From IMG/VR virus record IMGVR_UViG_3300025138_000014, positions 32,001 to 96,000 of that record: a DNA stretch of 64,000 bases; one strand, given 5' to 3'. Each line of letters begins with the position of its first letter. Positions within the stretch are counted from its first letter, which is position 1. The notes below the pieces were generated by a model. That model was not told the origin of the DNA, searched no databases, and was given only the letters and a program-made list of their open reading frames with translations. A program made the position numbers and the translations under genes. The DNA comes from a virus. This document shows positions 570 through 30,784 of this stretch, one piece after another.

Positions 570-1589
570 ATGTCTATATATGATCTATTAGAAAACAAAA
601 TAACAACTTATGGTGAGATTGTTTGCTGCTTATTTGAGCACTGCAATCTAAAATGTGTTTTCTGCCCTCAAGATCATAATGATATACAAGGTGCTGACCG
701 TGATGCTATTATGGCTAAAGTGCCACAGATTGTAGATTGGATTAATAATAATAGAAGAACTCAGGCTTATAAATTACATTTAATGGGCGGAGAACTCTTT
801 CAAGATGAATGGATAGATAAAGGTTTCCTAGAAATATATCAGGACTTTATTGATTCTATTATAGCACAAACGGAAGCTGATGTCTACATAAATTTTATAA
901 CTAATTTATGTTTTACTAAGTCAGATGTTGTAATGGAATTTTTAGAAGCAAATGATTTAACTATCTCTGTAAGTTATGATCCAGCTGGTAGATTTACTCC
1001 TAAAGCACATGAGATTTTTGTTTCTAATATTGAAACATATAAAGATAAGATTGAAATGATCTCGCTAGTTGCCACAAAACAGAATATAGCAAAAATTCAA
1101 CGTGGTGATAATTTATTTACATATCTTTACAATACATATCCTTGTGACTTTGACTCATTCTTACCTTCTGTAGATAACTCAAGAAAACTAATGCCTAGTG
1201 AAAGAACTCTTTTTGAGTTTAACAAATTGCTTGTATCTAAATATCCGAAATGTTTAAATGTTGATCATTTCGTTAATCAAAAAACACAGAATAAAATGAT
1301 TTGTACAAGAGGCAATTCTCTTACTGTAATGCCAGACGGATCTATTCCAACTGGTTGTTCTGGAGCAGTATTCTTAAAAGAAGCATCAACACCTGACCTG
1401 GCTGGTCCGGTGATCGTTGAAAAGTTTATGGCTAAATATAATTGCTTCGAGTGTAAATACTTTGCCCGATGCCCATTTAGCTGTTTCATTAAACAAGATT
1501 ATAAACACATTGAGCAAGATATGGACGAATGTGTATTTAAGGCGACATTCAAATATGCAGATAGCATTCATCAACCCACCGCATGCTGA
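570..1589 (+). CDS. Radical SAM protein with SPASM-like C-terminus (paralog of 24199-25323)
   Basis: CNLKCVFC (CxxxCxxC), GGELFQD, C-terminal C...GC...CFECKYFARCPFSC...C. Confidence 0.9.
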   Translation: MSIYDLLENKITTYGEIVCCLFEHCNLKCVFCPQDHNDIQGADRDAIMAKVPQIVDWINNNRRTQAYKLHLMGGELFQDEWIDKGFLEIYQDFIDSIIAQTEADVYINFITNLCFTKSDVVMEFLEANDLTISVSYDPAGRFTPKAHEIFVSNIETYKDKIEMISLVATKQNIAKIQRGDNLFTYLYNTYPCDFDSFLPSVDNSRKLMPSERTLFEFNKLLVSKYPKCLNVDHFVNQKTQNKMICTRGNSLTVMPDGSIPTGCSGAVFLKEASTPDLAGPVIVEKFMAKYNCFECKYFARCPFSCFIKQDYKHIEQDMDECVFKATFKYADSIHQPTAC

Positions 1590-3252
1590 TTGGTCATTAG
1601 CTAATAACTTCACATTTCTACTCATGCAAAGTTATTATAATCGCTTTGGTAAATATGCTGGGCAGATAGAATGGCTTGAATCTCCATATAAATGGAATAC
1701 CTATGAATCCTATGACGAAGTAACATCAGAGGTTATTAGTGCTGATGTAATTATGTTTTCATCTTATACATGGAACTATGTTATCTGTGATGAAATTTCG
1801 GCTAAAATTAAAAAAGAATATCCAAACAAAATATTAGTTTTAGGCGGTCCTCATATAGGTACAAATGAACCAGAACTATTAGCATCACGTCCGCAGTATG
1901 ATTTAATTTGTAGACCTACCAAACCAGGTGAGCCTTTTATGGCCGAGTTGATTGACCAGTTTATTGAAAAGAGAATTGATCCAACATATATCCCATGGGA
2001 GTTAAGGTCTGATATAGAAGTCATACACGATATAAGCAAAGAGGATTATTCAGTTTATGAAGATCACTTAGAATATATTACAAAGCTATTAGATTATTCA
2101 AGAGAACATAAGATGGAGCCTTTCATTGTTTTAGAGACAACAAGAGGTTGTCCTTACAAGTGTGTATTCTGTGAATGGGGTGGCGGTATCAATACAAAGA
2201 TTTATAAAAAGTCTGTAGATATTGTAAAGCGTGATATTAATGCTATGATAAAAGCTGGATATAGAGATGCTTATTTAACTGATGCAAATTTCGGAGCATT
2301 TCTAAAACGTGACTTTGAAATATTTGAATATGCTTGGGATAACAGTTTTAATTTAACAGATATATCCACTATGAAGTCAAAAGATTTACCAAGAAGAAAA
2401 GAGCTGATTGATAAGTGGTTTGAAATAGTAGATAAGCACGTTAAGGCGCCAGGTTCTACCGATGGTGAGGATATGTGGACTGAAACAGCTTTTGTTTCAT
2501 TAGTCCCAACTGTATCCATTCAAAGCAGTTCTGATACAGCCATGAAGTTAGCCGATCGTGTTGATTTAAATACTTATGATAAATTAAAATTAAGTGAATA
2601 TATTAATGAAAGATGTACTGAACACGGATATCCAATTCCAGCATTAGAGTTAATTCTTGCTATGCCCGGTTCTACAATAGATGACTTTTATTTTGAAATG
2701 GAATATATTTGGAACTTTAAAGCATTCGGTTCTTATCGGCACGACTATATGTTTTTGCCTGACTCAAGACTGAACTCTCCAGAATATAAGAAAAAACATA
2801 ATATTGAAACAGTAGAAGTATATTCAGATATTGTAGATGAACACGGCTCTGATAATTGGAACAGTTTATATAAAGACAAGAAATCATATTTTAGAACTAT
2901 CCTATCTTGTTTCTCTTTTACAAAAGAGGAGATGTATGAGATGTGGTTTATGAATAATGCGTGCAACTATATTCTACAGAAATTTTATCCACCTTTTGAG
3001 AAAAAAATGTCACCATCGGTATTTACAAAAGCAGTATATAATATTATAATAGAGTTAGACGAATGGATAGATATATATAATGAGATTAAAGATATTTACG
3101 ACCCAAATACTGCGCCTAAAAGTATTAGACAATTAGGTGGAAAATTTAGAACAGATTTTATAAATGATGTTCTGGAAAAAAATAGAATTATTATTATGTC
3201 GGAGGTTCATGGGGCATGTCAGGGAAGCAACTCACATTACAACTCACATTAA
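1555..3252 (+). CDS. Cobalamin-binding (class B-type) radical SAM protein
   Basis: Likely start MQIAFINPP at 1555; B12-binding-like N-domain (FSSYTWN, LGGPHI); ETTRGCPYKCVFCEWG; DANFG. Confidence 0.85.
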   Translation: MQIAFINPPHADWSLANNFTFLLMQSYYNRFGKYAGQIEWLESPYKWNTYESYDEVTSEVISADVIMFSSYTWNYVICDEISAKIKKEYPNKILVLGGPHIGTNEPELLASRPQYDLICRPTKPGEPFMAELIDQFIEKRIDPTYIPWELRSDIEVIHDISKEDYSVYEDHLEYITKLLDYSREHKMEPFIVLETTRGCPYKCVFCEWGGGINTKIYKKSVDIVKRDINAMIKAGYRDAYLTDANFGAFLKRDFEIFEYAWDNSFNLTDISTMKSKDLPRRKELIDKWFEIVDKHVKAPGSTDGEDMWTETAFVSLVPTVSIQSSSDTAMKLADRVDLNTYDKLKLSEYINERCTEHGYPIPALELILAMPGSTIDDFYFEMEYIWNFKAFGSYRHDYMFLPDSRLNSPEYKKKHNIETVEVYSDIVDEHGSDNWNSLYKDKKSYFRTILSCFSFTKEEMYEMWFMNNACNYILQKFYPPFEKKMSPSVFTKAVYNIIIELDEWIDIYNEIKDIYDPNTAPKSIRQLGGKFRTDFINDVLEKNRIIIMSEVHGACQGSNSHYNSH

Positions 3253-3764
3253 AAAAATGTTTAGATCAATTCGGATTTGCACAGCTATCTGAACCTGAAG
3301 GTCTTGGCGTGATAGATATTGATCAGTTTCAGTTAAGAAATACTGAAGAGCGAGCAAGAGATAATGGAGTTAATGATATACCACCATTTTTACAACTTCG
3401 CTTACACACATTCGGACACTTTTTATATGAAAAATATATTTTAAAAGATTGGCCGGATGCAGTTTTTAATAAGTATCTAATTTGGGACGGAGTGGATAAA
3501 GATAATCAAGGATGGCACACTGATATGTTTGAATCATATGACGTGTTTCTTTTATATTACTTAGATGACACATTTCCAGAAACTGGAGGCAGTATAAACT
3601 TTAAATGGAAAAATGAAGAAGGTATATCTGAAGAATTGTCTTTTCAACCAACAGCTGGAGACTTGTTTATGATTTCTAATAAAAGAGGTTTCTGGCACAA
3701 AGCTGGTCAGTCATCAATACAACGGAGGGTTTGTTCTTTTGACTTTAATACAAACGATAGTTGA
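3216..3764 (+). CDS. 2OG-Fe(II) oxygenase superfamily protein
   Basis: WHTD (HxD), GGSINF, distal HKA...RR. Confidence 0.75.
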   Translation: MSGKQLTLQLTLKKCLDQFGFAQLSEPEGLGVIDIDQFQLRNTEERARDNGVNDIPPFLQLRLHTFGHFLYEKYILKDWPDAVFNKYLIWDGVDKDNQGWHTDMFESYDVFLLYYLDDTFPETGGSINFKWKNEEGISEELSFQPTAGDLFMISNKRGFWHKAGQSSIQRRVCSFDFNTNDS

Positions 3765-4056
3765 CGAAAAAAATATTCTTTGTAAGGAAAGAGACTTGAC
3801 TGCAGAATTATATAATCTTTGGATTACTAAACTGCATGACTTTGAAGATATTCCAGAAAAATACGAACAGTATATGAAAATGATTGATAATCTTGAACCT
3901 TATGCAAATATGCTTAAAGAAGCCATAAGAGAAAAGAATAGTGAAATATGTAAACACTATGGAGTTAATTCTATTTCAGATACACCTCATTCAGTAGAAT
4001 GTATAAACAAATATGGTTATGATAGACCTAATGGAGCCGTACTGGAAAGAGGATGA
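3739..4056 (+). CDS. Hypothetical protein
   Basis: Packed operon ORF overlapping its neighbours; helical; no motif; start uncertain. Confidence 0.55.
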   Translation: MTLIQTIVDEKNILCKERDLTAELYNLWITKLHDFEDIPEKYEQYMKMIDNLEPYANMLKEAIREKNSEICKHYGVNSISDTPHSVECINKYGYDRPNGAVLERG

Positions 4057-4526
4057 TTGCTTTTGACACAGATCTGCTTGTAAATGGATATAAAGTTTTT
4101 GAGGATAAAAAAATACTCTTTACTTTAGGTAAAATACCTGATATAAAAGAATGGGAAGGAGATCAAGTAAAGTCTCCAAAAGGCTTTGATCTCCGACTAG
4201 CTCAAAATTATATTAACAATAAGTATGTTGCGCCAGTATTTGGTGGAGCAGTATTTGGTTATAGTAATATATGGAGTGGAACAGATAGCAATAGTAAAGA
4301 ATGGCACAATGATTTAATTGAAGGTTTTAATCTATTTTTTATGTATTACCTAAGTGATATAACAGAAGGCGGAGAGTTATGTTTCAGAGTTAATGGTAAA
4401 GAAACTGGTTCAATTCAGCCTAAGAAAGATATGCTGGTAATGGGATCTCAAGAAAGATACGTTGAGCATAAAGTGAACGACTGCAATCAGGAAAGAATAG
4501 TGTGTAACTTTGGATACAATATATAA
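4053..4526 (+). CDS. 2OG-Fe(II) oxygenase superfamily protein
   Basis: WHND, GGELCF, HKV...RIV; resembles 3216-3764. Confidence 0.75.
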   Translation: MIAFDTDLLVNGYKVFEDKKILFTLGKIPDIKEWEGDQVKSPKGFDLRLAQNYINNKYVAPVFGGAVFGYSNIWSGTDSNSKEWHNDLIEGFNLFFMYYLSDITEGGELCFRVNGKETGSIQPKKDMLVMGSQERYVEHKVNDCNQERIVCNFGYNI

Positions 4527-5190
4527 AATAGAAGAATATCTGCCTAAAATAGGTCCCTTTAGCATATACGCTCTATCTCATTTAATAACTCAAAGTGAAA
4601 AGTTTAATAATCACTTAGCTATGACTCAGCCAGATAATAAGTTTGAGTTAATGTATGCCAACTGGATAGCCACTGGTAATGAAAGTTTCATAGATTATTA
4701 TAAAGATATAGTTGCTCAAGCGTGCTTTGCTGAATTTCTTGAATGGTATGAGTACATAGCAAAGAACATACTACGAGATGATGTTCAAAGTGAACTTGGT
4801 ATTAAGTTTGACTATGATGCAATTAATTGGGAAAATGAAGTAAAAAAGTCCGAACTATTTGGATGGGCTTGGAGAACAACAGACTACAAACACTTTATGA
4901 ATAATTTGGATAAAGTCAGCAAAATCGGTGCTATGATGAACAACTTTTTTAATGATAGAAAACCGTTAAGCACTTTAGATGCAGATTACTTTGAATCAGA
5001 TCATGCTCAACTTGTACTCGACTCAATAGATAAAATTTTAATAAATAATGATAGACAAGAAATAATAGATCATTTAAATACAGAGAAAATTCTGTGTATG
5101 ATAGAAGTGTACGGTTGGGACAATCGGTTTAATAATATTCTATTGAAATGGATTTCAGACAATAGGAATAAAGTAAAACACTGGGCATGA
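4510..5190 (+). CDS. Hypothetical protein
   Basis: 226-aa ORF coupled to the downstream radical SAM gene (ATGA overlap). Confidence 0.6.
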   Translation: MDTIYKIEEYLPKIGPFSIYALSHLITQSEKFNNHLAMTQPDNKFELMYANWIATGNESFIDYYKDIVAQACFAEFLEWYEYIAKNILRDDVQSELGIKFDYDAINWENEVKKSELFGWAWRTTDYKHFMNNLDKVSKIGAMMNNFFNDRKPLSTLDADYFESDHAQLVLDSIDKILINNDRQEIIDHLNTEKILCMIEVYGWDNRFNNILLKWISDNRNKVKHWA

Positions 5191-6089
5191 TAATATCAAT
5201 AAACCCAACCTACTTTTGTAACTTTAGATGTGATTTCTGCTATCTATCTCCTAAACAATTGGGTGACCAGAAACAGATTTACCTTGAAAAACTAGATGAA
5301 TTATTAGCCCAAGTCCCAGATATAGAACACATTGACTTGTACGGCGGCGAAGTCGGCGCAATGAAAAAGTCCTATTTTTATGGCCTTAAAGAAGTCATTA
5401 GAAAATATTACTCTGGTACAATTAATATAAACACAAATTATTCTATGATGCATCCAGGCTTCTTTGACCCAGATGTTTATCTTTCTGTATCGTATGATTT
5501 TGAAGCAAGAGAAAAGTCTGAACTTGTCTTTAATAATATGATGATGGCTACAGCTCCAATGGCTGTTCTAGTCTTGGCTTCACCAACAGTATTAAAAAAA
5601 GATGTACTGGAGATGATAAGTTTACTAAATATGTGTAGTTCAGTCAGGTCTGTTGAAATTAAACCATATTCTACCAATCAAGCAAATGCTCATCCAGTAA
5701 CACATAAAGATTTTGAAGATCACGTTATTAAGTGGTTAGAGTATGAAGATGAAATGAAGTTCCAGTTTGTAAATGCAGATAGAATCATAGACTCATTGGA
5801 AGGCAACTATAATGCATTCTCTGACGATCATATTTATATTACACCAAATGGAAAATTCGGAGTATTAGAATTTGACAAAGAGGATAAAGAATACTTCCTA
5901 GAACTGGACAGTTGGGACGACTATATACTATGGACTCAAAAAGAAAAAACTGAAATGTCTCCTATCTGTACTTCTTGTAAGTATTTTGGTAAGTGCTTAA
6001 CAGAACATTATAGATATGTGAAAGACCTTACAAATAGTTGTAATGGATATAAAGGATTACTAGATTGGGCTGATTTAAATCTAAATTAG
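5187..6089 (+). CDS. Radical SAM protein with partial SPASM-like C-terminus
   Basis: NPTYFCNFRCDFCY, YGGE, C-terminal CTSCKYFGKC...C. Confidence 0.9.
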   Translation: MIISINPTYFCNFRCDFCYLSPKQLGDQKQIYLEKLDELLAQVPDIEHIDLYGGEVGAMKKSYFYGLKEVIRKYYSGTININTNYSMMHPGFFDPDVYLSVSYDFEAREKSELVFNNMMMATAPMAVLVLASPTVLKKDVLEMISLLNMCSSVRSVEIKPYSTNQANAHPVTHKDFEDHVIKWLEYEDEMKFQFVNADRIIDSLEGNYNAFSDDHIYITPNGKFGVLEFDKEDKEYFLELDSWDDYILWTQKEKTEMSPICTSCKYFGKCLTEHYRYVKDLTNSCNGYKGLLDWADLNLN

Positions 6090-6112: not shown

Positions 6113-6120
6113 TATAAATA
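6113..6120 (+). promoter_or_regulatory. T4-type late promoter
   Basis: Intergenic TATAAATA 33 bp upstream of the tail/virion block; gp55 is present in the window. Confidence 0.8.
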
Positions 6121-14026: not shown

Positions 14027-16123
14027 ATGGTAACTAAACTCAGTACACATCTAAATACAAGCCTAGGTAATGTTGTACAAGGTGTAGACTCAGAAGATGT
14101 AATTACACTAATCGGCACCACAAAAGTAGCTGTTGACTCAGGTACTATTGGTAACTTTATTGCAACCATTTCACCAACTTCACCAAACCCTGGCATTGTT
14201 ATTACAGGATCTGGTTCAAACAGTGCAGCGGCTTTTCTAAGGTTAGATTCAGCCGTTGCAGTAACGAAAACTGGTACACAAACATTAACAAATAAAACAA
14301 TTAACCTTACTGCTAATACTTTGACTGGAACTGCAGCTCAATTTAATGCAGCTATGAGTAATGGTTCATTTGCTACTATCGGTGGAACAGAAACTTTAAC
14401 AGATAAAACTTTAACAAGTCCAGTAATTAACTCTGCAACAATTAATAATGGTACAGCAAATAATCTAGCAACACTTAGTTTAAGAGATGCTACAACTAAT
14501 ACTAAAAAACTTATAGTAACATCCAATGCCGCAAGCCCAGTTTTATCGGCTGATAGAACACTAACACTTGATGTTAACAATGCAGATAGAACATTATCAC
14601 TAATGGGTAATGTTACATTAGGCGGAGCATTAACTACATCAGGCGCTCACGCAACAACATTTACTACAGGCGGAACAACCGCACTTACTTTGCCAACATC
14701 TGGTACAGTTGTTACAAAAGATTCAGCTGGTGGAACAATCTCAGCTAACTATTTTATTGGTAATGGTGCACAGTTAACAGGTGTTGCTTCAGGCGATATC
14801 GTAGCTGATACTACTCCACAATTAGGAGGAGATTTAGATGCAAACGGAAACAATATTCTATTAGACAATGCTACAAAAATTAGTTTTGGTTCAGACACAC
14901 TTCAAGTAAAAACTGATGGAAGTAGTAATAGTATTATTCAAGGTTCCAGTACAACATACCTCAGAGGCAGTAGTGTTAATATCGGATCAAATGGCGGCAG
15001 TGGAGGATATCCAAATACAATACTTGTAACTGGAAACACAAGTACAAGTCACGTTGAAATGCTTTATGGCACAAGTAAAAAGTTTGAAACAACCAGTACA
15101 GGTGTTACAGTAACAGGTAATATAACTGTATCTGGTACAGTTGATGGTGTAGATGTTCTAACAATTGGTAATAAAGTAAATGGTATTGAAGCATCAGCTG
15201 ATGTTACAGATGCTACTAATGTTGGAACATCTCTTACAGCATTTAGCACATCAACAGATGATGCGCCAGGAGATTTAATTCCAGTCTATGATGTTTCAGC
15301 TAGTGCTTGGAAAAAGATGACTATTGCTAATGCGGCTCTTGGTGGAGCCCAAGGTAACAAAGGTCAAAAAGGTGAAGTAGGTGGAGACGGTGGAGCGGGT
15401 AGTAAAGGACAAAAAGGTGAAGTCGGCGGAGACGGTGGAGCGGGTAGTAAAGGCCAAAAAGGCGAAGTAGGTGGCACAGGTGGAGCAGGTGGAGCGGGTA
15501 GTAAAGGACAAAAAGGTGAAGTAGGAACATTTGGTGGCGGAAACATCACAATAACCAACCAAGCAATTTTATCTAATGCGTCATCTAACTGGACAGGTGA
15601 TCCAGGCACCCAAGGTAAAATTCAGTACCACTCAAATAGATGGTATATTGTTTCAGACCAATCTTCAGACAGAATTGTTCAGTTTAGAAGAAATGGAACA
15701 GATGTGTCATATGTAGATAACTCAGGTGTGTATCAGGGTACAGCAACGTCAGCAAATTGGTCTGACTTAGCGGAGAAATATAAAGCAGATGCAGTTTATG
15801 AAGCAGGTGATTTAGTAGGTATCGGCGGAGCTGAAGAGATTACTAAATACACTAAAGATATGCCATTTGCTGGAGTTATATCGGAAAAACCTGGCGTGAG
15901 AATGAATTGCAATGAAGAAAATATGGATGATCCACTATGGCCATATGTTTGTTTAAAAGGTCGTGTTCCAGTTAAGATTAATGGAACAGCAATTAAAGGC
16001 GATTATATTATTACAGACGATAATGGAAAAGCAAAGTCTAGCAAAGTTAAGCCAGATGATTTAAGTCTGCTTATCGGCATTGCTCTTGAAGATGGGACAG
16101 ACGAGGTAGAGGTTAAAATTTAA
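14027..16123 (+). CDS. Tail fibre with collagen-like segment and C-terminal intramolecular chaperone/autoproteolytic domain
   Basis: TLTNKT repeats, DTTPQLGGDLD, 22 GXY triplets, SANWSDLAEKY...GRVPVK...GD..I...G.A...IGIALE. Confidence 0.8.
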   Translation: MVTKLSTHLNTSLGNVVQGVDSEDVITLIGTTKVAVDSGTIGNFIATISPTSPNPGIVITGSGSNSAAAFLRLDSAVAVTKTGTQTLTNKTINLTANTLTGTAAQFNAAMSNGSFATIGGTETLTDKTLTSPVINSATINNGTANNLATLSLRDATTNTKKLIVTSNAASPVLSADRTLTLDVNNADRTLSLMGNVTLGGALTTSGAHATTFTTGGTTALTLPTSGTVVTKDSAGGTISANYFIGNGAQLTGVASGDIVADTTPQLGGDLDANGNNILLDNATKISFGSDTLQVKTDGSSNSIIQGSSTTYLRGSSVNIGSNGGSGGYPNTILVTGNTSTSHVEMLYGTSKKFETTSTGVTVTGNITVSGTVDGVDVLTIGNKVNGIEASADVTDATNVGTSLTAFSTSTDDAPGDLIPVYDVSASAWKKMTIANAALGGAQGNKGQKGEVGGDGGAGSKGQKGEVGGDGGAGSKGQKGEVGGTGGAGGAGSKGQKGEVGTFGGGNITITNQAILSNASSNWTGDPGTQGKIQYHSNRWYIVSDQSSDRIVQFRRNGTDVSYVDNSGVYQGTATSANWSDLAEKYKADAVYEAGDLVGIGGAEEITKYTKDMPFAGVISEKPGVRMNCNEENMDDPLWPYVCLKGRVPVKINGTAIKGDYIITDDNGKAKSSKVKPDDLSLLIGIALEDGTDEVEVKI
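15344..15541 (+). repeat. Collagen-like Gly-X-Y repeat (about 45-bp unit, GSKGQKGEVGGDGGA)
   Basis: 22 consecutive GXY triplets, 8 with Lys at Y, no Pro. Confidence 0.95.
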
Positions 16124-16510
16124 ATGCCCGATTATAATACACTAGATGCTTCACTACAAGCAAAAGCGGGTGGGGCACTGAGAACTTTTGATAAAACTAT
16201 GACTTTTACTGTAACTGCATATGTATTACAATCAGTTACTACTACTCAAGCAGGCCCTACAAGCACACTTGGCGTTACTCAAAGATTTGAATTTACAGGT
16301 GCTGCCGATTCACTTTACGACGATTATCTTGACTCTGGTATTTACACTGGGGCACGTATATATTCTCAAGATGTTATTGACTCAATTTCTAATACAATAC
16401 AAAGAACTGTAGATCAGATAGAAAGTCGAATCACTGATAGATCAATCTCAGCTTTAATTTGCCACAATAGTTGTCATACTAGCTGCCATACTTCAAGAGG
16501 GCGCAGATAA
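16124..16510 (+). CDS. Candidate radical SAM substrate/precursor A with C-terminal (CHxS)3-RGRR motif
   Basis: Ends CHNSCHTSCHTSRGRR; paralog of the next ORF; coupled to the tail fibre gene and the radical SAM operon. Confidence 0.7.
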   Translation: MPDYNTLDASLQAKAGGALRTFDKTMTFTVTAYVLQSVTTTQAGPTSTLGVTQRFEFTGAADSLYDDYLDSGIYTGARIYSQDVIDSISNTIQRTVDQIESRITDRSISALICHNSCHTSCHTSRGRR

Positions 16511-16896
16511 TGGGAAATATGACGAGAGACAGTGTCGACTCTTATATCCAAACTTATTCTGGAGCGAAGTTAAGAACATTTGACAAAACTATTACTATAA
16601 CAACTACAGCATATCAGAATAACAATCCCACTGCTATGGGTGGAACAGGTACTAATACTACGACACATAGGTTTGAATATACAGGTGCTGCCGATTCACT
16701 ATTCGATAACTATATTGATGGAGGTATCGCAGTGGGCCAAAGAGTTTATGCGCAAGATATTGTAGACACTTTAGAGGATGCAGTACAAAGAACAGTTGAT
16801 TTGATTGAAAGTCGAATTGATAACAGATCTATCAGCGCAGCGTTATGTCACAGTAGTTGTCATACAAGCTGTCACACATCGAGAGGAAGACGCTAA
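16510..16896 (+). CDS. Candidate radical SAM substrate/precursor B with C-terminal (CHxS)3-RGRR motif
   Basis: Ends CHSSCHTSCHTSRGRR; same length (128 aa) as A; TAATG overlaps at both ends. Confidence 0.7.
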   Translation: MGNMTRDSVDSYIQTYSGAKLRTFDKTITITTTAYQNNNPTAMGGTGTNTTTHRFEYTGAADSLFDNYIDGGIAVGQRVYAQDIVDTLEDAVQRTVDLIESRIDNRSISAALCHSSCHTSCHTSRGRR

Positions 16897-18080
16897 TGGC
16901 GATGCAAGAATCATATTGTAAGCAAATGAGATATTCTGGACCAGAAAGTCTAGCACCATCAGATGCTACAAAGTTTGATGTTTTAATTCAAATGGAAGTA
17001 TTAGCTGGATGTGAGCAAGGATGTTTAGGTTGTTTTGTAGATAAGGCTATTGATCCAAAAAGTAATCAGCAAATTATTGATCGTGCTAAAGAACTGGCAG
17101 ATGGTGTAAAAAGAACTGGTCTTAATTTAAGAGAATTTGTTATAGGACCAACGGATCTGTTTTCTGCTAAAAACACTAAAGAAGTATTGGAGAATAAAGT
17201 TGTCCAAGAAATTATGCGAGAACATACAGGCGCTAGAATTGCATCCCCTGCAAAATTTGATAAAGCGCCTATGGAAAAAGTTAGAGAAATATTTGATATC
17301 CTAGATGATGAGAATAAATTCCGTCGTGATATGATTATTGAGTTTATTATGCCTATTGGCCGTATTAACGAGATGTTAGATGACGAGGACTATTATAAGT
17401 CTGTTATGGAAAAAGTTGACTTTTTTAAGAACGATACTCCTAAGATGATGGATTGGTCTTGGACTTTACAGGCTTCAAATGTAGTCGGTAAACAAATAGA
17501 CAAAGAAAAATACAACAGACTTATTAAAAGATCAGTTGAAGATTTTGGTACTATCATGGAAATGAACCCAGCGTTCTCCCGTGCACCAAATCAGATAATT
17601 CAAAGAAAAAATCTATTCGGTTGGAATAAATTCCTTAGTTCTGTTATTGATGAAGATAATGCTAAAGAGACAGTAATGTCCATGGCTAATTTATATTGTA
17701 ATTCAATAAACTTTATTGGTATTACTATTGTACCCGGAGAAAATGGACCGACTACACATCTTAATGTTATGCTTCACGAGCAAGCATTTTTCTTATCAAA
17801 TAAAAATCTTGATGTTACTGGACTTACATTTGAAGAAATTCTACAACGTAAACACGAGTTGGTTACAAAAGGTATAAATAAATCAAGTAAGGTAAAAGAT
17901 TGTCAAGACTGCCAGTTCGCTATGGCTTGTGCAAATAGATTAGTATTTGAGGCTCAAGAGTCAATGAATATTAATGGTTGTGTTTTACCAAAAGAAACAT
18001 TAGAGCATTATAATCCATTCGACTTTACATGGAATGACGATGCAGAAAAATATAATATGAAAAACGGAGCAAGAGCATGA
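16896..18080 (+). CDS. Divergent radical SAM protein (GPTD family, copy 1)
   Basis: Start at TAATG overlap; LAGCEQGCLGCFV, IGPTDLF, CQDCQFAMAC...C. Confidence 0.85.
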   Translation: MAMQESYCKQMRYSGPESLAPSDATKFDVLIQMEVLAGCEQGCLGCFVDKAIDPKSNQQIIDRAKELADGVKRTGLNLREFVIGPTDLFSAKNTKEVLENKVVQEIMREHTGARIASPAKFDKAPMEKVREIFDILDDENKFRRDMIIEFIMPIGRINEMLDDEDYYKSVMEKVDFFKNDTPKMMDWSWTLQASNVVGKQIDKEKYNRLIKRSVEDFGTIMEMNPAFSRAPNQIIQRKNLFGWNKFLSSVIDEDNAKETVMSMANLYCNSINFIGITIVPGENGPTTHLNVMLHEQAFFLSNKNLDVTGLTFEEILQRKHELVTKGINKSSKVKDCQDCQFAMACANRLVFEAQESMNINGCVLPKETLEHYNPFDFTWNDDAEKYNMKNGARA

Positions 18081-19183
18081 TTGGTCAAAATCTATACTAT
18101 CTTAACAGTTCAAAATATGTGAGTAATACGAGCAATCTTGGAACAGTAATCGGTGAATTAAACTCATACTACCACACCAAAACTCCTAGAAATATAGTTA
18201 TTGTTCATATGCAAAATGGTGCACAACATATAGCCGGAGCGCATGAACACATTGCCAATGAAATTAGAGCAGGTGCTGCAGATTTAATTAGCTATAAGAC
18301 TTGGGACGAAGTTGACAATATTGATTATATTCAGAATAGTGAAAAAGCAATTATTCTGTTTGCTACAGTTGAAGATATGATAACAGTCTTGGTAAGATAT
18401 ACAGCTGGGCTTATAAAAGCGTCAGGTTTCTATCCAGCAGATTCAGACTTCCAAGCCATAACCAGTGCATTTGTAAATAAGATATTTGATGTTGACTTAA
18501 TGTTTACATATATTAATAATCACGAAATTGTTGCTGATATTCCTGGTCACTTAACTTCTTTTTGGGCAGGCGATACTAGACCAGCAGGTAGAAACACTCC
18601 TTATGAAGTAATTTTCCAGAATGGTAAAAACTTCAGCTATGATCTTTTGTTTTTCTTAAATGATTATTATAGATGTAGCGGAGTCCAAGGTTTAATTAAA
18701 GAGAAATTTACAGTTCATCAATCTACTATGGCACAAGATGTTATGGAACACTTTACATCACGTCGGCACTATATGGCTTATATTTTATCAGTCATTGATT
18801 GGATGAATGCAAATGTGTCACGTAACTCTCAATATGCTACAGATAAGAAACCATGGATTGTTGATGCTTATATCACTAAAGCCAATTCTGGCAACTATAC
18901 AGCTGCTTTTTATAAGCTGGAAGAGTTATGGAACCTAGTCAAAGATGATACGGCATTTATTGCAGCACACCAAGACAAAGCTGATTCGGATGCTACTGGT
19001 TGGGAATATATGGATTTATATACAGAATTTAAAAATGTATTTCCCATTGTCAGAAAAGTTTTACAGAATGATTTTGATATGAATAATCTTACTATGGAAT
19101 TAAGGCTTATTAATACAGACGTTCAGTTTTTCTCAAAAAGACAAAACAGGATCCCATACTTAATTCACAAATACCCTTTATAG
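18077..19183 (+). CDS. Hypothetical protein in the radical SAM operon
   Basis: 368-aa ORF with ATGA overlap; no recognised motif. Confidence 0.7.
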   Translation: MIGQNLYYLNSSKYVSNTSNLGTVIGELNSYYHTKTPRNIVIVHMQNGAQHIAGAHEHIANEIRAGAADLISYKTWDEVDNIDYIQNSEKAIILFATVEDMITVLVRYTAGLIKASGFYPADSDFQAITSAFVNKIFDVDLMFTYINNHEIVADIPGHLTSFWAGDTRPAGRNTPYEVIFQNGKNFSYDLLFFLNDYYRCSGVQGLIKEKFTVHQSTMAQDVMEHFTSRRHYMAYILSVIDWMNANVSRNSQYATDKKPWIVDAYITKANSGNYTAAFYKLEELWNLVKDDTAFIAAHQDKADSDATGWEYMDLYTEFKNVFPIVRKVLQNDFDMNNLTMELRLINTDVQFFSKRQNRIPYLIHKYPL

Positions 19184-19197
19184 GATTATAATATATC

Positions 19198-19962
19198 ATG
19201 AATGAAAAAACAGACATTGAAGCTAAGTGCTATGTGCTACCATTAGCACCTCAAGACTTAGTGGGAATTTACAAGCATAAAGAAACTGTTGAAGATTTTA
19301 CTTTATGGGTAGATTATTTAATATCTAAAGAAAAGCTATCAGCAAAACACATAATTATATATTTGGCTAATACTAATTTTAGAGCATCATTTGCGCAAAT
19401 TGATGATGATCTTATTCGTGAGTATATTAAATCAGATTTCATGGTAGATTGCCCTTTACTTGCAAGGATAGTTGTTCTAATAGTTAAACATTATTATAGA
19501 CATGAACCAAATGAACAAGAGCGTGAATTGTATAGTATATTCTCACCTTCAAATATTAATATTTTTATCAGAGATAATAACGATCTAGTCAAAGAGTTAG
19601 TTCGTACTATAGCAAGTGCTATACCATTTGTATTAAATAAATTTTATGATGGTCTTGACGAAGAGGGTAAAGAAAAAGAAATTAATATAAGAGAATTTGT
19701 AAACGATATTACTATAGCAGATAAACCATCTAATTGCGGTCCGAATATTGCTAGATTGCTCACAGTAGGTTTTGATGCATTCTTACTTATTATTCAAAAA
19801 GAAGGCTTGTCTATGGAATACAATAAGCAAGTTTATAACGATGCTCCTAAATTTCTGGGAAAAGATTTATATTTTATTTTCTGTAACACTAAAATTACAG
19901 ATCATATTATGGATTTCTTTCCTGACGACTGGATAAAATCATATGATAGTACATCTGAATGA
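19198..19962 (+). CDS. Hypothetical protein in the radical SAM operon
   Basis: 254-aa ORF; AGGA upstream; overlaps the next gene. Confidence 0.7.
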   Translation: MNEKTDIEAKCYVLPLAPQDLVGIYKHKETVEDFTLWVDYLISKEKLSAKHIIIYLANTNFRASFAQIDDDLIREYIKSDFMVDCPLLARIVVLIVKHYYRHEPNEQERELYSIFSPSNINIFIRDNNDLVKELVRTIASAIPFVLNKFYDGLDEEGKEKEINIREFVNDITIADKPSNCGPNIARLLTVGFDAFLLIIQKEGLSMEYNKQVYNDAPKFLGKDLYFIFCNTKITDHIMDFFPDDWIKSYDSTSE

Positions 19963-20965
19963 TACATATGCTGGATACTGGAATTTCAAAAAAGATAAAT
20001 CTCCAGTAAATCAGGCATTTTTAAGAACAGAGATCAACCTTGACATTCTTCACGGCTGTAGCCAGATGTGTCCAGGCTGTTTTATTCCCAGAAAAAACTT
20101 AACTGATCCAAATGGAATGATAGAACTTCATAAGTTGCTTATCAATGGGCAATTTTATCCAGATGAAATCACTATTGGTCCAACTGATATATTTGATGCA
20201 GAAAATTTTGATGAAGTTATGAGACATCCTGGGCTCAAACTTCTTTATGAAATATCAGGTGTCGGATATACAACTACTTTACTACAACATGAAGAAGTTG
20301 TAAAGAGAAAACTTGCTATGATCTGGGATATTTATCAGCACATACATAGAATGCCAGATATGGATTTCAAAATTGTATTTGATATTGACAAATATCTTGA
20401 TGGAGAACTAGATGATTGGTATAAAAAATTAGAGTTATTCAATCTAGGTTCCGTTCAATTTAGGGTAAACTACCATAAAGGTGTGTTTGATAGAATTGGA
20501 TATAATGAGTTATGTAAAAGAGTTAAAGAGGATTTTAATACTCCGATTATTATTACTCCAAGTTTCTTAACTGATAGAAATGTAAGAGGAAAGGTTGATC
20601 AACATCTTGCTTCATTTAGACAAGAGTTATTAGATCAGAAAATAGATAGAGAATGGCTTCAGTATTATACATTCTTTGACGCCGAGTTTAATGGACTTGG
20701 TTGCCAGAACTATTCTTTTTATAATGGAAAGCTATATACAAATCCATTTTTATATGATAATATAATCCAGAGAACACCTAAGTTTGAAACAACTATGGAT
20801 GAAAATACCCTGTTTGATAATATAGATTATGCTCAACAGGTAGATGACTGTAATGGGTGTGAATATATGATGAGTTGTGCAGAGCGCAATATTCACTTAT
20901 ATATGGAGTCACGTAATTTGGAATCATGCGTTGCTCTTAAAGAGTATATGTATGCCCCTCATTAA
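19943..20965 (+). CDS. Divergent radical SAM protein (GPTD family, copy 2)
   Basis: LHGCSQMCPGCFI, IGPTDIF, CNGCEYMMSC...C. Confidence 0.85.
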   Translation: MIVHLNDTYAGYWNFKKDKSPVNQAFLRTEINLDILHGCSQMCPGCFIPRKNLTDPNGMIELHKLLINGQFYPDEITIGPTDIFDAENFDEVMRHPGLKLLYEISGVGYTTTLLQHEEVVKRKLAMIWDIYQHIHRMPDMDFKIVFDIDKYLDGELDDWYKKLELFNLGSVQFRVNYHKGVFDRIGYNELCKRVKEDFNTPIIITPSFLTDRNVRGKVDQHLASFRQELLDQKIDREWLQYYTFFDAEFNGLGCQNYSFYNGKLYTNPFLYDNIIQRTPKFETTMDENTLFDNIDYAQQVDDCNGCEYMMSCAERNIHLYMESRNLESCVALKEYMYAPH

Positions 20966-22115
20966 AAATAATCTATTCTATGAATTAACTACAGAGACAC
21001 AAACCAAACCAGTATCAGCCGTAAAACTTCAGCTTGATGTATTAGACGGATGCCATCATAAGTGTCCGGGTTGTTTTGTTCACAGACGTGGTAATTCTAG
21101 TAATAAACATCAGTTAAGTGATGCTAAAAAATTCATAAGAAGTATAACAGACCAGGGTATTCTAGTTGATGAAATGCTTATTGGTCCTACAGATTTTCTT
21201 GCTTCAGAAAATTTCTATGAAGTTATGCCAGATCTGTTAGATATAATTAATGAAAATTCTCCTATTCTTGCATTTGTTTCAACTCTTATTGATGGAGACT
21301 TGAAGCGATGGACTCAATATATTACAGATAATATTAATATCAATACTGAAATAGAAATTGGTATTGCTACAAATCCTGCAAAGTTTTATGAAGAAGGCTA
21401 TAGACAACTGATTCAAGATAAGTTAGATTATATAGATAAGAATTTGGAACACGAGGTAACTTATACTTTTGTTGTAAATATTAGAGATTATGGTATTGAC
21501 TATGAAAAATTACATAACCATTCTGTCGTTTGTTTTAAAACGGTTTTAGACTTTGTTCCGTCTGTTAGTAGGTCACATAAGAATTACCTCATATTAAAGA
21601 TTTTAGATAAATTTAACGTGTTTTTTAATGAGCTAAGTGCTTATAAAGAAAGCAAAATAAATAACATTATGGTAGACCATTCACACGGTGGTCTGAATTA
21701 TACTGTTTTAAACTACAAGACAGGCAAGTGGTATTTAAGTCCTTTTATGTATGAGAACATGGCTATCTATGATGATATGTTTCATATAGATAATTTCAAT
21801 GATGTTACTGCTATTGTGGAGAAACAGATACAAAGAGCAAAAGGAACTGAGTGCGAAGATTGCCCTCTATTCTTTAGTTGCTATAATAGAAAAATTATAT
21901 TACTCAGAGATTATCTTGGCGTTGATAGATGTATTGCACCTAAAGAAAACATGATGGCACATATACATAACTACAACGGTCCTGCTCAGACTATGTATGA
22001 CTGGGATGGTTATTCAGTTGAGAACGATAAAAACGGATATAGAAAAAAGTTTTTAGTGACTCAAGAGAATGACCCAGAATTAGAACGACTCAGAGAAATA
22101 TCCTATGTTAAATAA
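20952..22115 (+). CDS. Divergent radical SAM protein (GPTD family, copy 3)
   Basis: Likely start MPLIKNN; LDGCHHKCPGCFV, IGPTDFL, CEDCPLFFSC...C. Confidence 0.85.
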   Translation: MPLIKNNLFYELTTETQTKPVSAVKLQLDVLDGCHHKCPGCFVHRRGNSSNKHQLSDAKKFIRSITDQGILVDEMLIGPTDFLASENFYEVMPDLLDIINENSPILAFVSTLIDGDLKRWTQYITDNININTEIEIGIATNPAKFYEEGYRQLIQDKLDYIDKNLEHEVTYTFVVNIRDYGIDYEKLHNHSVVCFKTVLDFVPSVSRSHKNYLILKILDKFNVFFNELSAYKESKINNIMVDHSHGGLNYTVLNYKTGKWYLSPFMYENMAIYDDMFHIDNFNDVTAIVEKQIQRAKGTECEDCPLFFSCYNRKIILLRDYLGVDRCIAPKENMMAHIHNYNGPAQTMYDWDGYSVENDKNGYRKKFLVTQENDPELERLREISYVK

Positions 22116-23241
22116 CGATTGGGCAGACATTGTAAATAACGGCAAAATGTTAGAAGAATATTCTGCAATTAGCCAAATGAAACAATACAAGATTCAAGTA
22201 ACTCTTGAGCTGCTTGAAGGCTGTTCTTATCTTTGCCCGGGTTGTTTTGTAAAACGTAGGGGTAATTGGCATCCAAAATCAATAGCATTATTTCATAGTT
22301 TAGCATATGAACTTAAAGATAGAACTGATATTGTTCTTGATGATATTGTTATCGGACCTACAGATTTCTATGGCGCAGAAAACTTAGAAGAAATACTTGA
22401 TGATCCTAGATTGGCTGATGCTATTCTTATGATGCCTGAGGATAATAGAAACATACAACATAACTGTTCTATTTTAGGTTCTCTATCTGAAAAAGATATT
22501 GAGAGTAAAATTAAGAAAGTTGAAAATTCTAGGCTGGGAGCTGTAGTTAAATGTTGGGATGTGCAAATTGCACTAGATTTAAATAGGTTACTTAACGATG
22601 ATGATTATAGACAAGCACTTGAAAATAGAGTAAAGATGTTTGAAGATAGTTCACTAGAATTTGAAATATCAATGGCAACTAACATTGTAAATAATATTGA
22701 AAGTATATTATTTGAAGCCATAAATTACACTAGAGAAAAATATTCTACAGTTATAGAAATACTTCCATCTGTAGTTAGGTCATTAAGTGCTAATAGCAAA
22801 CATGCCGTGAAACTATTTAAGTGGAACTCCATGCTTGATACTTTTGCCAAAGAGCCGGATTTTAAAAATAAGTTTCATTTCCTACAAGGAGATATATCTC
22901 ATAAGACTTTTCAATATGCAGTTGTTAATATACATTTTGGAAAGTTTTATGCTTCACCATTTATTTATGAAAATGCTCAGATTTATAAAGAATCATTTGA
23001 AATTAAAATTAATGATTCTATCCATGAATCTATACTAGCACATAAAGATGCAATTGTAAACAAACAAATAGAAAGTAGTGCAAATAAAGAGTGTGGTTCT
23101 TGTAAATATTTAACCATATGTTCTCATAGAATGATTCCACAAGTAATGGACACATTTTTTAAAGACCGATATGAGTGCATATTAAATAAAGATGTAATAA
23201 GTATCTGGGATTATGAGGTGTATCGTGGGAATAGTTATTAA
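22105..23241 (+). CDS. Divergent radical SAM protein (GPTD family, copy 4)
   Basis: LEGCSYLCPGCFV, IGPTDFY, CGSCKYLTIC...C. Confidence 0.85.
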   Translation: MLNNDWADIVNNGKMLEEYSAISQMKQYKIQVTLELLEGCSYLCPGCFVKRRGNWHPKSIALFHSLAYELKDRTDIVLDDIVIGPTDFYGAENLEEILDDPRLADAILMMPEDNRNIQHNCSILGSLSEKDIESKIKKVENSRLGAVVKCWDVQIALDLNRLLNDDDYRQALENRVKMFEDSSLEFEISMATNIVNNIESILFEAINYTREKYSTVIEILPSVVRSLSANSKHAVKLFKWNSMLDTFAKEPDFKNKFHFLQGDISHKTFQYAVVNIHFGKFYASPFIYENAQIYKESFEIKINDSIHESILAHKDAIVNKQIESSANKECGSCKYLTICSHRMIPQVMDTFFKDRYECILNKDVISIWDYEVYRGNSY

Positions 23242-26769: not shown

Positions 26770-27791
26770 TGCTTTTCTTCCGCTAGAGTCATCATCAAGG
26801 TTTTAGGTGCAGGACAGACATCATCCATCCAATAGAGTTGGTGACAATCAGATTTACAATATAAGAAAACTGGGCACTTATAACATCTCTCATCTCTATC
26901 GTTTATTTCTTCACTTATTGTGCACATTCGTGCAGGATTTAATTTTACTACCTCTGCTGGAGTATTTATAGTATCGTAATGTTTTGTTGGTGCAGTATTT
27001 GGACAACCCGCTACTGTTCCATCAGCATTAATAGTAAAAATTTTCTGCTCACAGTCACGACAAAAAGTACCAATACTAAATTGCCCATGTGAAAATTTCT
27101 TATAAACTGAGTCTAAAAATCCATTAAAGACATTATGATCTTTAGTTGTTTTGTGCATCTTCATCCACCAAGCATCTAATTCTCTATTATGTGGAAAAAT
27201 ATCAGTATTAATTTTAGCATTACCATCGTGGGTTAATCTCTCATAACTAATTTCATCAATGCCTATTGATTCCATATAGTCCGCTATCCATAGAGGTTCT
27301 AGTTTTAGAATGTCCTTAGATACCGAAATAAAACATTTCATTCTGTGACCACGAGAAGCTAAAAACTTTACATTGTTTTCCCATAGTTCTCTTTGTTTTT
27401 CATTAGAAAATCTAATATTTGGATCCCAGCTGGTTCCAATACTTCCGCCATCAATACATTCTTCAAGGAATGATAATCTTGCTTCATTTAATTTAAAAAC
27501 TAGATTGCTAGTTATTCCATGGGTACAACGGTCTCCCCATTGATCTTTAGTTATCCGATGAAATTCACGTAAATGATCCATTGGTGCAAGAAGAGGTTCT
27601 CCACCGTGATATTCTAAATGAATTTGATTTGTTCCGTTATCTAATTGATTGACCCAGTTAGCAGTCTTTATATGGTCAAAATAAATCTTTCTACCATTCT
27701 TACCGCTAGTGAAGCAATGGAAACAATTAAGATTGCAGGTTTCCGTTGTCTTCACATACACGCAAGTAAATTTTTGTGTCACTAATGCCAT
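26760..27791 (-). CDS. Radical SAM/SPASM protein (peptide maturase-like)
   Basis: KTTETCNLNCFHC, YHGGEPLL, CRDC...INADGTVAGCP...CYKCPVFLYCKSDC...CP. Confidence 0.9.
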   Translation of the reverse strand: MALVTQKFTCVYVKTTETCNLNCFHCFTSGKNGRKIYFDHIKTANWVNQLDNGTNQIHLEYHGGEPLLAPMDHLREFHRITKDQWGDRCTHGITSNLVFKLNEARLSFLEECIDGGSIGTSWDPNIRFSNEKQRELWENNVKFLASRGHRMKCFISVSKDILKLEPLWIADYMESIGIDEISYERLTHDGNAKINTDIFPHNRELDAWWMKMHKTTKDHNVFNGFLDSVYKKFSHGQFSIGTFCRDCEQKIFTINADGTVAGCPNTAPTKHYDTINTPAEVVKLNPARMCTISEEINDRDERCYKCPVFLYCKSDCHQLYWMDDVCPAPKTLMMTLAEEKQWI

Positions 27792-28206
27792 AACTGAATA
27801 TCAATGCTTCCTGAGTGTTTAATGCACGATGTTTTGTGCCTTTTGGTATTTCTACTTGTTCACCTGGATTTAGTAACTTTGTAGAACCTTCAATTTCTAA
27901 TATTTTATTACCATCGCAGCAATATATTACTACATCTACTGGATCTGTATGTTCTTCAAAAGATGGACCATCAATAGGATTATAAAATATATGCATCGTG
28001 CCTTCATTATAATCAACAATCTTTTCATACATCTCAATTTTTAATGTATTCTTTTCTGCGATTAAAGCCGAAATTTTACCATAATATACCCAATAGTTAT
28101 CTTGTTCAACATACTGTATTCTGTGTTCACTATCTATAACCGAAACATTACAAACATTGAAGCACTGTTCGGAGAGAATAAACTCAAAGAACTGTTCAAA
28201 ATTCAT
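27727..28206 (-). CDS. Cupin/JmjC-like oxygenase
   Basis: SFEEHTDPVDV...G.K...LNPGE.V.IPKGTKHRA. Confidence 0.7.
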   Translation of the reverse strand: MNFEQFFEFILSEQCFNVCNVSVIDSEHRIQYVEQDNYWVYYGKISALIAEKNTLKIEMYEKIVDYNEGTMHIFYNPIDGPSFEEHTDPVDVVIYCCDGNKILEIEGSTKLLNPGEQVEIPKGTKHRALNTQEALIFSYGISDTKIYLRVCEDNGNLQS

Positions 28207-28237: not shown

Positions 28238-28245
28238 TATTTATA
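28238..28245 (-). promoter_or_regulatory. T4-type late promoter for the minus-strand cupin/radical SAM operon
   Basis: TATTTATA on + (TATAAATA on -), 32 bp before the 28206 start. Confidence 0.75.
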
Positions 28246-28262: not shown

Positions 28263-28847
28263 ATGATAAAGCAAGCATTTGCAACACCCATATCCATAGA
28301 AAAAATTACTGTGGATGATATTGTCGAAACCATCTTTTTAGAATATGATTTATCTAAGCCCCCTGATGATAAGTATAACATATTCGAAGGTGATTGTAAA
28401 CCCGCCGTTAAAGAATTAGAAAAAATAGCCTATGATAGATTTCGTAATTATGTTGACAAAGCATTTGATATTGATATAGACAAATATGAGTCGGCGATGA
28501 AAGCATGGATAACAGGTCATGGGGAACAATATTCTATGGCTATACATAATCATTCTGGTTCTTGGTTCTCTGCTGTATACTATGCACTTGCAGAAGAACA
28601 AGGTCGTGGAGGAGCAATTTCTTTTCATGATCCAAGAACTAATGCAAATCGTGGATATGATGCTAATTTTGCACCACATTTTGCAGCAGAAAAGTTACAA
28701 CCAGAAACTGGAGACCTTGTGATATTTCCATCATTTTTATATCATCATGTAGATCCATATTTCTCAAAATTTAGAATAGCAATTCCAATTGATTTGTATC
28801 TGGCAGATTGGCCAGATGGAAAAGATAATGAAAGAATTTTTGAATGA
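28263..28847 (+). CDS. Putative 2OG-Fe(II) oxygenase (TIGR02466-like)
   Basis: HNHSGSWFSAVYY, F.DPR, GDLVIFPSFLYHHV.P...RIAI. Confidence 0.8.
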   Translation: MIKQAFATPISIEKITVDDIVETIFLEYDLSKPPDDKYNIFEGDCKPAVKELEKIAYDRFRNYVDKAFDIDIDKYESAMKAWITGHGEQYSMAIHNHSGSWFSAVYYALAEEQGRGGAISFHDPRTNANRGYDANFAPHFAAEKLQPETGDLVIFPSFLYHHVDPYFSKFRIAIPIDLYLADWPDGKDNERIFE

Positions 28848-30781: not shown

Positions 30782-30784
30782 ATA
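30777..30784 (+). promoter_or_regulatory. T4-type late promoter
   Basis: TATAAATA upstream of gp13. Confidence 0.8.

Follow-up and report, generated by a model that had tools for sequence, protein, structure and literature searches.

The peptide maturase PapB links Cys to Asp or Glu at position +4, and QhpD, a radical S-adenosylmethionine (rSAM) enzyme with a SPASM domain, installs several Cys thioethers in a small protein, the gamma subunit of quinohemoprotein amine dehydrogenase, that stays in a larger complex. The anSME/AtsB enzymes (TIGR03942, PDB 4K36-4K39) are compact rSAM/SPASM proteins that lack the leader-binding recognition element (RRE) of enzymes for peptides that are made on ribosomes and modified after translation (RiPPs), and what they recognise in a folded, full-length protein is a short Cys/Ser motif. 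Among published concepts, the HXS antiphage system (HxsA/B/C/D; Li et al., Nat Commun 2026, PMC13128918) comes closest: several rSAM enzymes mature a protein, as opposed to a small peptide, that has His-x-Ser units in tandem together with basic residues. Its effector HxsA carries basic HxS repeats, is matured by two such enzymes and shows a +8 Da change on an SHRSS motif. The locus analysed here lies in a 64,000-nucleotide (nt) stretch, hereafter the window, that comprises positions 32,001 to 96,000 of the IMG/VR virus record IMGVR_UViG_3300025138_000014, a 151-kb T4-like myophage. It encodes two tandem proteins of 128 amino acids (aa), A1 and A2, that end in the same Cys- and His-rich tail and are followed by a series of rSAM genes. 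Gene comparisons across many lineages show this tail to be conserved, modular and coupled to a set of enzymes, and we infer that it is their substrate. No paper describing the tail or its cassette was found in the literature.

A1 and A2 are 58% identical (E = 2e-50), share the blocks LRTFDKT, RFE(F/Y)TGAADSL and QRTVD.IESRI..RSISA, and both end in CH.SCH.SCH.SRGRR, with all three Cys of each protein inside the tail (Table 1). Their tail codons differ at 10 of 17 positions, nine of the differences being synonymous and the remaining one an N/S exchange at an x position. The genes are joined as fibre-TAAATG-A1-TAATG-A2-TAATG-rSAM, with the rSAM ATG at 16896, and the window holds 11 open reading frames (ORFs) with a CxxxCxxC motif. 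A sequence-only reading of this DNA had pointed to paralogues with near-invariant C-termini, to synonymous divergence of the tail codons, to the confinement of Cys to the motif, to TAATG overlaps leading into the first rSAM gene and to 11 enzymes, all of which agree with the translations and the gene map. A third tail-bearing gene, encoding a 195-aa protein with an unrelated body, is located 1.3 kb before the window start, directly behind a twelfth rSAM gene, so that the genome carries 12 rSAM/SPASM genes in total.

The body of A1 and A2 represents class A and that of the third protein class B. Among the metagenomic homologues of class A, found by whole-protein search down to 38% identity, the tail is present in 103 of 103, including one with a Cys-to-Ser change and one with two repeats. 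The class-B search was scored on the body only, and 94 of 95 homologues carry the tail. Over both classes it is therefore present in about 197 of 198 homologues, with three units in 190. In class-B tails, the fourth position of the unit is S, N, A or D, and the glycine of RGRR is replaced by S, A, T or I in some members. In the sequences compared, the true invariant is thus (C-H-x-x)3-R-x-R-R-COOH at the very C-terminus, in which Ser has no fixed place; the motif given in the sequence-only reading, (Cys-His-x-Ser)3-Arg-Gly-Arg-Arg, describes A1 and A2 correctly and is too narrow as a general consensus. A DNA pattern scan for the strict tail matched at least 118 viral contigs and 18 genome contigs, and the neighbourhood, ORF and family counts given below rest on the matches listed. 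The 123 distinct tail DNA sequences encode Ser with both AGY and TCN codons and Arg with both AGR and CGN codons, and a reversed-pattern control returned 0 matches. Because the tail is kept in homologues found via their bodies, uses both codon families and yields an empty reversed control, a chance origin is excluded. When six or more repeats were sought in a loose scan, the matches were tandem DNA repeats of 12 bp and not tails.

Grouped by body, the 171 tail-bearing ORFs (124-309 aa for complete ones) form two large families, class B with 82 members of about 190 aa and class A with 72 members of 124-140 aa that mostly occur as tandem pairs, and eight small unrelated ones. By this grouping, the tail is a portable modular tag on at least 10 unrelated bodies. 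The AlphaFold2 (AF2) model of a class-A protein (pLDDT 81) consists of a helix, a long beta hairpin, a second helix and a flexible linker leading to the tail, which is itself drawn as a low-confidence helix at residues 115-124. Fold searches with this model against PDB, BFVD and the Atlas and in a wide VIA search gave nothing above noise (best Z 5.2, TM 0.32), and the tail proteins match no Pfam or NCBIfam family and, in PHROGs, only phrog_35144, whose function is unassigned. Prediction of the 128-aa protein as a homotrimer scored 0.27 and 0.01 against a mark of 0.42, which is evidence neither way.

The neighbourhood of the tail genes is stereotyped. An rSAM gene lies beside or near the tail gene in 108 of 118 viral loci and in 18 of 18 genome loci, and the loci without any rSAM gene are short fragments. 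The coupling proposed in the sequence-only reading is thereby borne out, since a check for the motif away from rSAM genes turned up, among the matches listed, these fragments. The rSAM ORFs in the tail loci (n = 360) group into five families, fam0 to fam4. In the type B order, a fibre gene is followed by a cupin, fam1, the tail gene, c3, c4 and fam2 and then by fam3, fam4 and 2-oxoglutarate (2OG) oxygenases; in the type A order, a fibre gene is followed by two tail genes, fam0, c10, c3 and several further copies of fam0. Counting was restricted to loci with at least 2 kb of upstream or at least 4 kb of downstream sequence. On the upstream side of class-B genes, fam1 is present in 56 of 59 loci and the cupin, which precedes it, in 51 of 59, and on the downstream side fam2 is present in 38 of 38 and c3 in 37 of 38. 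Downstream of class-A genes, fam0 and c3 are each present in 21 of 21 loci. This gene-level regularity supports a functional tie between the tail and the rSAM enzymes.

A fibre whose conserved C-terminal domain (CTD) spans about 160 aa lies upstream of 109 of the 136 tail ORFs that have enough upstream sequence. In the window, the CTD spans about nt 15635-16108 of the fibre gene directly before A1 (CTD profile against this fibre, E = 1e-49), and the same fibre matches the one before the class-B cassette (BLASTP E = 3e-16). The CTD (ADLAEKY...LKGRVPV.I.G..KGD...IGIALE) has no Pfam match and also occurs in gp176, a virion protein of the Agrobacterium phage Atu_ph07. The tail cassettes sit in a variable fibre region between VrlC-like genes, which lie with gp8 upstream of the window, and the neck and tail genes inside it (gp13/14-like, 31577-32503; gp15, 32503-33285). 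In pelagimyophages and cyanomyophages, the corresponding stretch from VrlC to the neck genes is the host-recognition cluster, and its description mentions rSAM cassettes without explanation, giving neither function nor substrate and leaving the Cys-His tail unmentioned (PMC7029224).

Among the five rSAM families, fam1 comprises about 345 aa, with an rSAM core and a SPASM domain, and its best full-length profile matches are PapB, DynA and anSME; the end-to-end alignment of its profile with anSME (PDB 4K36; E = 7e-8) makes the latter its only full-length solved relative. The alignments of fam1 with QhpD, DarE, HxsB and CefB begin at profile positions 75-98 of these RRE-bearing enzymes, indicating that fam1 lacks the RRE. 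Since all rSAM scores against characterised families are far below the curated cut-offs (17-43 bits versus 268-650), no family membership is claimed. Like anSME, fam1 is compact and RRE-free, and it is proposed likewise to recognise a short motif within a folded protein; as read from the sequence, Cys and Arg in the last tail repeat, C-H-x-S-R, are spaced as in the sulfatase motif C-x-P-x-R. However, fam1 and fam3 score only 39-43 bits against the TIGR03942 cut-off of 349, the tail proteins have no sulfatase domain, their motif lacks the Pro and is repeated three times, and four more rSAM families and oxygenases are encoded alongside.

The fam1 copy that precedes the third tail gene shares 46% identity with ORF067 of phage RSL2, and its best NCBIfam match, over the full length, is to the maturases of PapB/CXXX-repeat ranthipeptides (NF047865, TIGR04115; E = 1e-10). 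Their substrates, precursors of the freyrasin type, are built of tandem units in which a Cys recurs every four or five residues, and the tail resembles them in this. The scores nevertheless reach only 35-41 bits, with cut-offs at 340-350, neither Asp nor Glu occurs at +4 in the tail, and PapB-type substrates are leader-bearing small peptides and not virion proteins. The match of fam1 to QhpD/QhpC (TIGR03906) is weak over the full length (E = 7e-7, 28 bits versus a cut-off of 453); fam1 is without the N-terminal extension of QhpD, whose acceptors are Asp and Glu. Compared with the triceptide and three-residue cyclophane families (XyeB, GrrM/OscB, YhhB, AmcB), the enzymes score 17-32 bits against cut-offs of 310-450, and the tail has H-x-S units whose third residue varies.

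A further thought suggested by the likeness to HxsA, in which HxS repeats are combined with basic residues as H-x-S units are combined with R-x-R-R in the tail, is that the tail proteins are DNA-binding or anti-defence effectors that would act on DNA entry, carried or injected for superinfection exclusion or against HXS-type defence. We regard this as distinctly improbable. The tail proteins have no NCBIfam match (HxsA is TIGR03979), the rSAM enzymes score 17-26 bits against the HxsB and HxsC cut-offs of 268-370, and HxsD has no match among the scanned neighbours. The HXS system is bacterial, periplasmic and defensive, and its repeat is devoid of Cys, which is invariant in the tail; the Ser of the H-x-S unit is dispensable in class-B tails. 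The tail genes, moreover, lie behind fibre genes, and a cassette in a Pseudobdellovibrio chromosome (see below) is beside a fibre-like gene with an S74 domain. Variability at the fourth position also argues against an obligatory His-to-Ser link, so that, of the two chemistries left open in the sequence-only reading, Cys thioether formation remains a candidate and His-x-Ser cross-linking of the Hxs kind is weakened as the defining step.

The other cassette members are less closely related to known proteins. The unusual motifs CxxxCxGCF and IGPTD, the latter in place of the usual GGEP-type SAM motif, mark fam0, of which five paralogues span 16896-24241 in the window, and searches of PDB with the fam0 profile and with single rSAM sequences found no solved relative. 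The most widespread companion of the tail proteins is c3 (AF2 pLDDT 88, pTM 0.86); fold searches gave a best Z of 4.6, a PDB profile search was empty and an Atlas feature search scored 0.82, which is noise. Pfam and NCBIfam scans assign no family to c3, c4 or c10. A weak profile match connects c10 with c4 (hhalign E = 4e-4), and the possibility that c3, c4 and c10 are degenerate rSAM proteins was rejected by hhalign. The set also includes several 2OG oxygenases and a cupin, for which JmjC_2 gives a weak signal.

Because the rSAM/SPASM enzymes score best against the peptide maturases PapB, DynA, DarE and the CXXX-repeat family, and a Cys at every fourth residue resembles PapB substrates, the tail proteins could be thought of as classical RiPP precursors, in which the body would be a long leader and the 16-residue tail a core that is cut off after rSAM cross-linking and released as a toxin, signal or metallophore peptide; long folded leaders do exist, as in NHLP and Nif11. 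This view is improbable, as an invariant core behind diverse 'leaders' is the reverse of the RiPP pattern. The RRE-recognised conserved leader with a variable core that defines such precursors is not what is found here, fam1 itself having no RRE, and the recurrent cassette families, of which c3 and c4/c10 have no assigned function, include no recognisable protease or exporter. In addition, the genes are inside late structural operons behind fibre genes, and one tail protein is detected in virus particles at 35% coverage (see below). The leader-plus-core precursor of the sequence-only reading is therefore not supported, in view of the folded, conserved bodies of at least 10 families, the constant tail, the RRE-less fam1 and the virion association of a tail protein. 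Nor was anything found to show that RGRR is a cleavage tag, as had also been suggested; a furin-like cleavage site was rejected because nothing follows RGRR.

Evidence from a cultured phage points to a tail protein in the virus particle. A megablast search of the island and a tblastn search of the class-B body, both against phages, gave no match. The cassette, with the order cupin, fam1, tail, c3/c4, optionally fam0, and then fam2, fam3 and fam4, is carried by two phiKZ-like phages of Ralstonia and Burkholderia, RSL2 and SURPRISE13, by Pseudomonas phage pPa_SNUABM_DT01 (tail ...CHSARGRR) and by the Rak2-like Agrobacterium phage Atu_ph07 (tail ...CHNSRSRR), and the triad of cupin, fam1 and tail is conserved between marine phages that are T4-like and jumbo phages of the phiKZ-like or Rak2-like type. 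The papers on these cultured phages class the rSAM genes as accessory, with no role assigned. The tail protein of Atu_ph07 (AUZ94952) was mapped by mass to gp170 of the published virion proteome (PMC6102473, Table S5), the computed masses of gp170, gp176 and gp177 (31.89, 66.07 and 21.66 kDa) fitting that table to 0.01 kDa. In the particle preparation, gp170 is represented by 8 unique peptides with 35% coverage, and the CTD fibre gp176 is also listed as a virion protein. The cupin, the rSAM enzymes and the c3 homologue gp169 (gp164-169, gp171 and gp172) are absent from the list. Thus, one distant orthologue was detected in this preparation while the neighbouring enzymes were not. On the gel, gp170 runs far above its calculated mass: its peak is in fragment 1, the topmost, where proteins of 120-137 kDa run, and for other proteins near 32 kDa the peak is in fragment 7.

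Three Cys plus His form an IscU-like ligand set, and each of the 12 rSAM/SPASM enzymes needs two or three clusters, so that the tail might be imagined as an Fe-S or sulfur carrier supplying a cluster or persulfide to them. This is very improbable: in Atu_ph07 particles the tail protein is present and no enzyme is, the bodies are diverse and fibre-linked, and family scans found no similarity to IscU, SufA or Nfu. Attachment of a c-type haem at the overlapping C-x3-C-H was rejected, there being no haem lyase or Ccm context, a cytoplasmic assembly and Cys residues shared by two motifs.

Taken together, the constant tag on variable bodies, the RRE-less enzyme adjacent to it, the presence of the tagged protein, alone among the cassette products, in the virion and the position behind fibre genes argue for a fibre-associated protein with a modified tag. 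We lean, with some reserve, towards the tail proteins being small, folded, late, virion-associated proteins whose C-terminal tag is enzymatically modified by the co-encoded enzymes. The two 128-aa proteins would be located in or on the particle, the most likely anchor being the fibre whose gene directly precedes theirs, and their C-terminal 16 residues, (Cys-His-x-x)3-Arg-x-Arg-Arg, would be a portable tag recognised directly, with no leader peptide, and chemically modified before or during assembly by the five rSAM families, the cupin, the 2OG-Fe(II) oxygenases and the helpers c3 and c4/c10. With its RRE-less SPASM architecture, anSME-like build and PapB-like scoring, fam1 would probably act on Cys, by thioether cross-linking or by oxidation to formylglycine, and the other enzymes would add further steps, for example hydroxylation or methylation. 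By analogy, the candidate bonds include Cys thioethers of the PapB or QhpD kind, formylglycine of the anSME kind, possibly followed by a cross-link, and His-centred cross-links. The outcome would be a fibre accessory that is hardened, cross-linked or able to bind metal.

Several points weigh against this modified-tag reading. Modification of the tail is, for every lineage including this one, a prediction from gene content, and with scores of 17-43 bits against cut-offs of 268-650 the chemistry is not readable from homology. The virion association of gp170 comes from one preparation purified with polyethylene glycol (PEG) that also contained ribonucleotide reductase (RNR), single-stranded DNA-binding (SSB) and RecA-like proteins. 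Class A is flanked by fam0 and not by fam1, so that one tail may be the target of different enzymes, or their targets may be the bodies, and the enzymes could act on the fibres instead of the tail. Invariant Cys and His, finally, are classic metal ligands that need no enzyme, and the high apparent mass of gp170 could be due to disulfide bonds, as no reductant is listed for the published loading buffer.

The last of these points lead to the main rival, namely that the Cys3His3 tail is unmodified and serves as a site for Zn, Fe or Cu, or that disulfides between its chains hold an oligomeric fibre accessory together, while the enzymes modify other targets such as collagen-like fibres or sugars. 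Such a site would fit the invariance of Cys and His next to a fourth position that tolerates S, N, A and D, and the four-residue spacing would align the Cys on one face of a helix, as in the low-confidence helix of the AF2 model. The gel behaviour of gp170 is compatible with it, the island holds PLOD-like collagen-modifying enzymes aimed at fibres, and the tip protein gp37 of T4 binds iron via HxH motifs. We nonetheless judge it unlikely, for it gives no account of the gene-to-gene flanking by fam1 or fam0 in over 100 loci across unrelated phage lineages, of a compact operon in which the same enzymes occur with no fibre (see below), or of the invariant R-x-R-R-COOH.

If the modified-tag reading is true, this would be the first case of rSAM, RiPP-style chemistry finishing a protein of a virus particle, and the unexplained rSAM cassettes of marine myophage host-recognition clusters would gain a function. 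The system is no rarity: abundant T4-like phages of the sea carry it, as do cultured jumbo phages that infect Ralstonia, Burkholderia, Pseudomonas and Agrobacterium, and predatory bacteria. It offers enzymology five uncharacterised rSAM families with a defined 16-residue candidate substrate, the tag may serve protein engineering if it is recognised with no leader, and the cultured phages that carry the cassette make the idea directly testable.

The cassette also exists outside phages. All 18 genome matches are contigs of metagenome-assembled genomes (MAGs), nine of them from Bdellovibrionota. A 299-kb Pseudobdellovibrio contig, which is clearly chromosomal, holds a complete tail-protein/rSAM cassette (G008:C4:190001-208000), flanked by PilMNOPQ, prepilin-peptidase and ABC genes on one side and by CarAB and elongation-factor genes on the other, and adjoining a 336-aa protein with a Peptidase_S74 fibre-chaperone domain. 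In Bdellovibrio, phage-like fibre proteins serve prey recognition (PMC10769870), and a link between the Pseudobdellovibrio cassette and such fibres is a lead only. In another Bdellovibrionota-type MAG (L129), a compact operon consists only of the tail protein, fam1, c3, fam0, fam2, fam3, fam4 and c11, with no fibre between them, which argues that the tail protein rather than the fibre is the common partner of the enzymes. A terminase search in five MAGs found none, a result that is uninformative. A bolder proposal, which we put forward tentatively and think rather doubtful, is that phages and predatory Bdellovibrionota use a dedicated multi-enzyme rSAM pathway to equip the C-terminus of a fibre-tip accessory protein with a non-proteinogenic prosthetic group, which could be a cross-linked or aldehyde-bearing knot or else a metal site resembling a metallophore; this virion-displayed, RiPP-type moiety would serve host or prey recognition or covalent fibre assembly.

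The features of the window that belong to the two cassettes are given in Table 1.

Table 1 Tail-protein genes, cassette enzymes and associated features in the window
Feature	Position	Strand	Remarks
Downstream half of class-B cassette	570..6089	+	its tail gene is 1.3 kb before the window
Class-B half: fam2 rSAM; B12-rSAM; fam4 rSAM	570-1589; 1417-3252; 5187-6089	+	
Class-B half: 2OG oxygenases	3216-3764 and 4053-4526	+	
Fibre-like protein, 698 aa	14027..16123	+	collagen-like KGQKGEVGG repeats; from translation
Tail protein A1, 128 aa, class A	16124..16510	+	tail CHNSCHTSCHTSRGRR at 16460-16507
Tail protein A2, 128 aa, class-A paralogue of A1	16510..16896	+	tail CHSSCHTSCHTSRGRR at 16846-16893
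Radical SAM fam0, 394 aa	16896..18080	+	GCxxxCxGCF, IGPTD, C-terminal CxxCx5C...C; ATG overlaps the A2 stop
c10, 368 aa	18077..19183	+	class-A counterpart of c4; recurs in 29 loci
c3 helper, 254 aa	19198..19962	+	recurs in 109 loci, one copy per locus
Four more fam0 paralogues	19943-20965, about 20952-22115, 22105-23241, 23213-24241	+	
Radical SAM fam2, 374 aa	24199..25323	-	
c11, 135 aa	25310..25717	-	homologous to the C-terminal extension of some fam4 rSAMs
Radical SAM/SPASM fam3, 351 aa	25714..26769	-	
Radical SAM/SPASM fam1, 343 aa	26760..27791	-	family directly precedes class-B tail proteins elsewhere
Cupin (Cupin_2, weak JmjC_2)	27727..28206	-	first gene of the minus-strand operon; TATAAATA box at 28238-28245
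2OG-Fe(II) oxygenase (2OG-FeII_Oxy_5)	28263..28847	+	recurrent cassette member

Some further observations concern individual cassette members. The free-standing c11 protein corresponds to the C-terminal extension fused to some fam4 enzymes with an hhalign probability of 99.9. The B12-rSAM of the class-B half has its best match to KedN5-type C-methyltransferases (E = 9e-25, far below the cut-off) and recurs in 16 cassette loci. Some fam1 members (e.g. L122:1775-2806) carry CHSDCHQL in the SPASM region, a two-unit echo of the CH.. spacing of the tail, and these are probably merely cluster-binding residues.

Boxes of the sequence TATAAATA stand 30-65 nt before gene starts on the plus strand at 6113-6120, 30777-30784, 35231-35238, 37577-37584 and 43831-43838, in addition to the minus-strand box before the cupin/rSAM operon (Table 1). 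They look like T4-type late promoters, as far as the motif and its placement indicate, with no overall enrichment of the box in the window (14 observed versus 11 expected). In addition, positions 28844-30781 encode a single polypeptide with GT25, PLOD-type glycosyltransferase (GT) and 2OG oxygenase domains, near the collagen-like fibre with its KGQKGEVGG repeats; this domain combination suggests that the fibre may undergo a collagen-style glycosylation of hydroxylysine.

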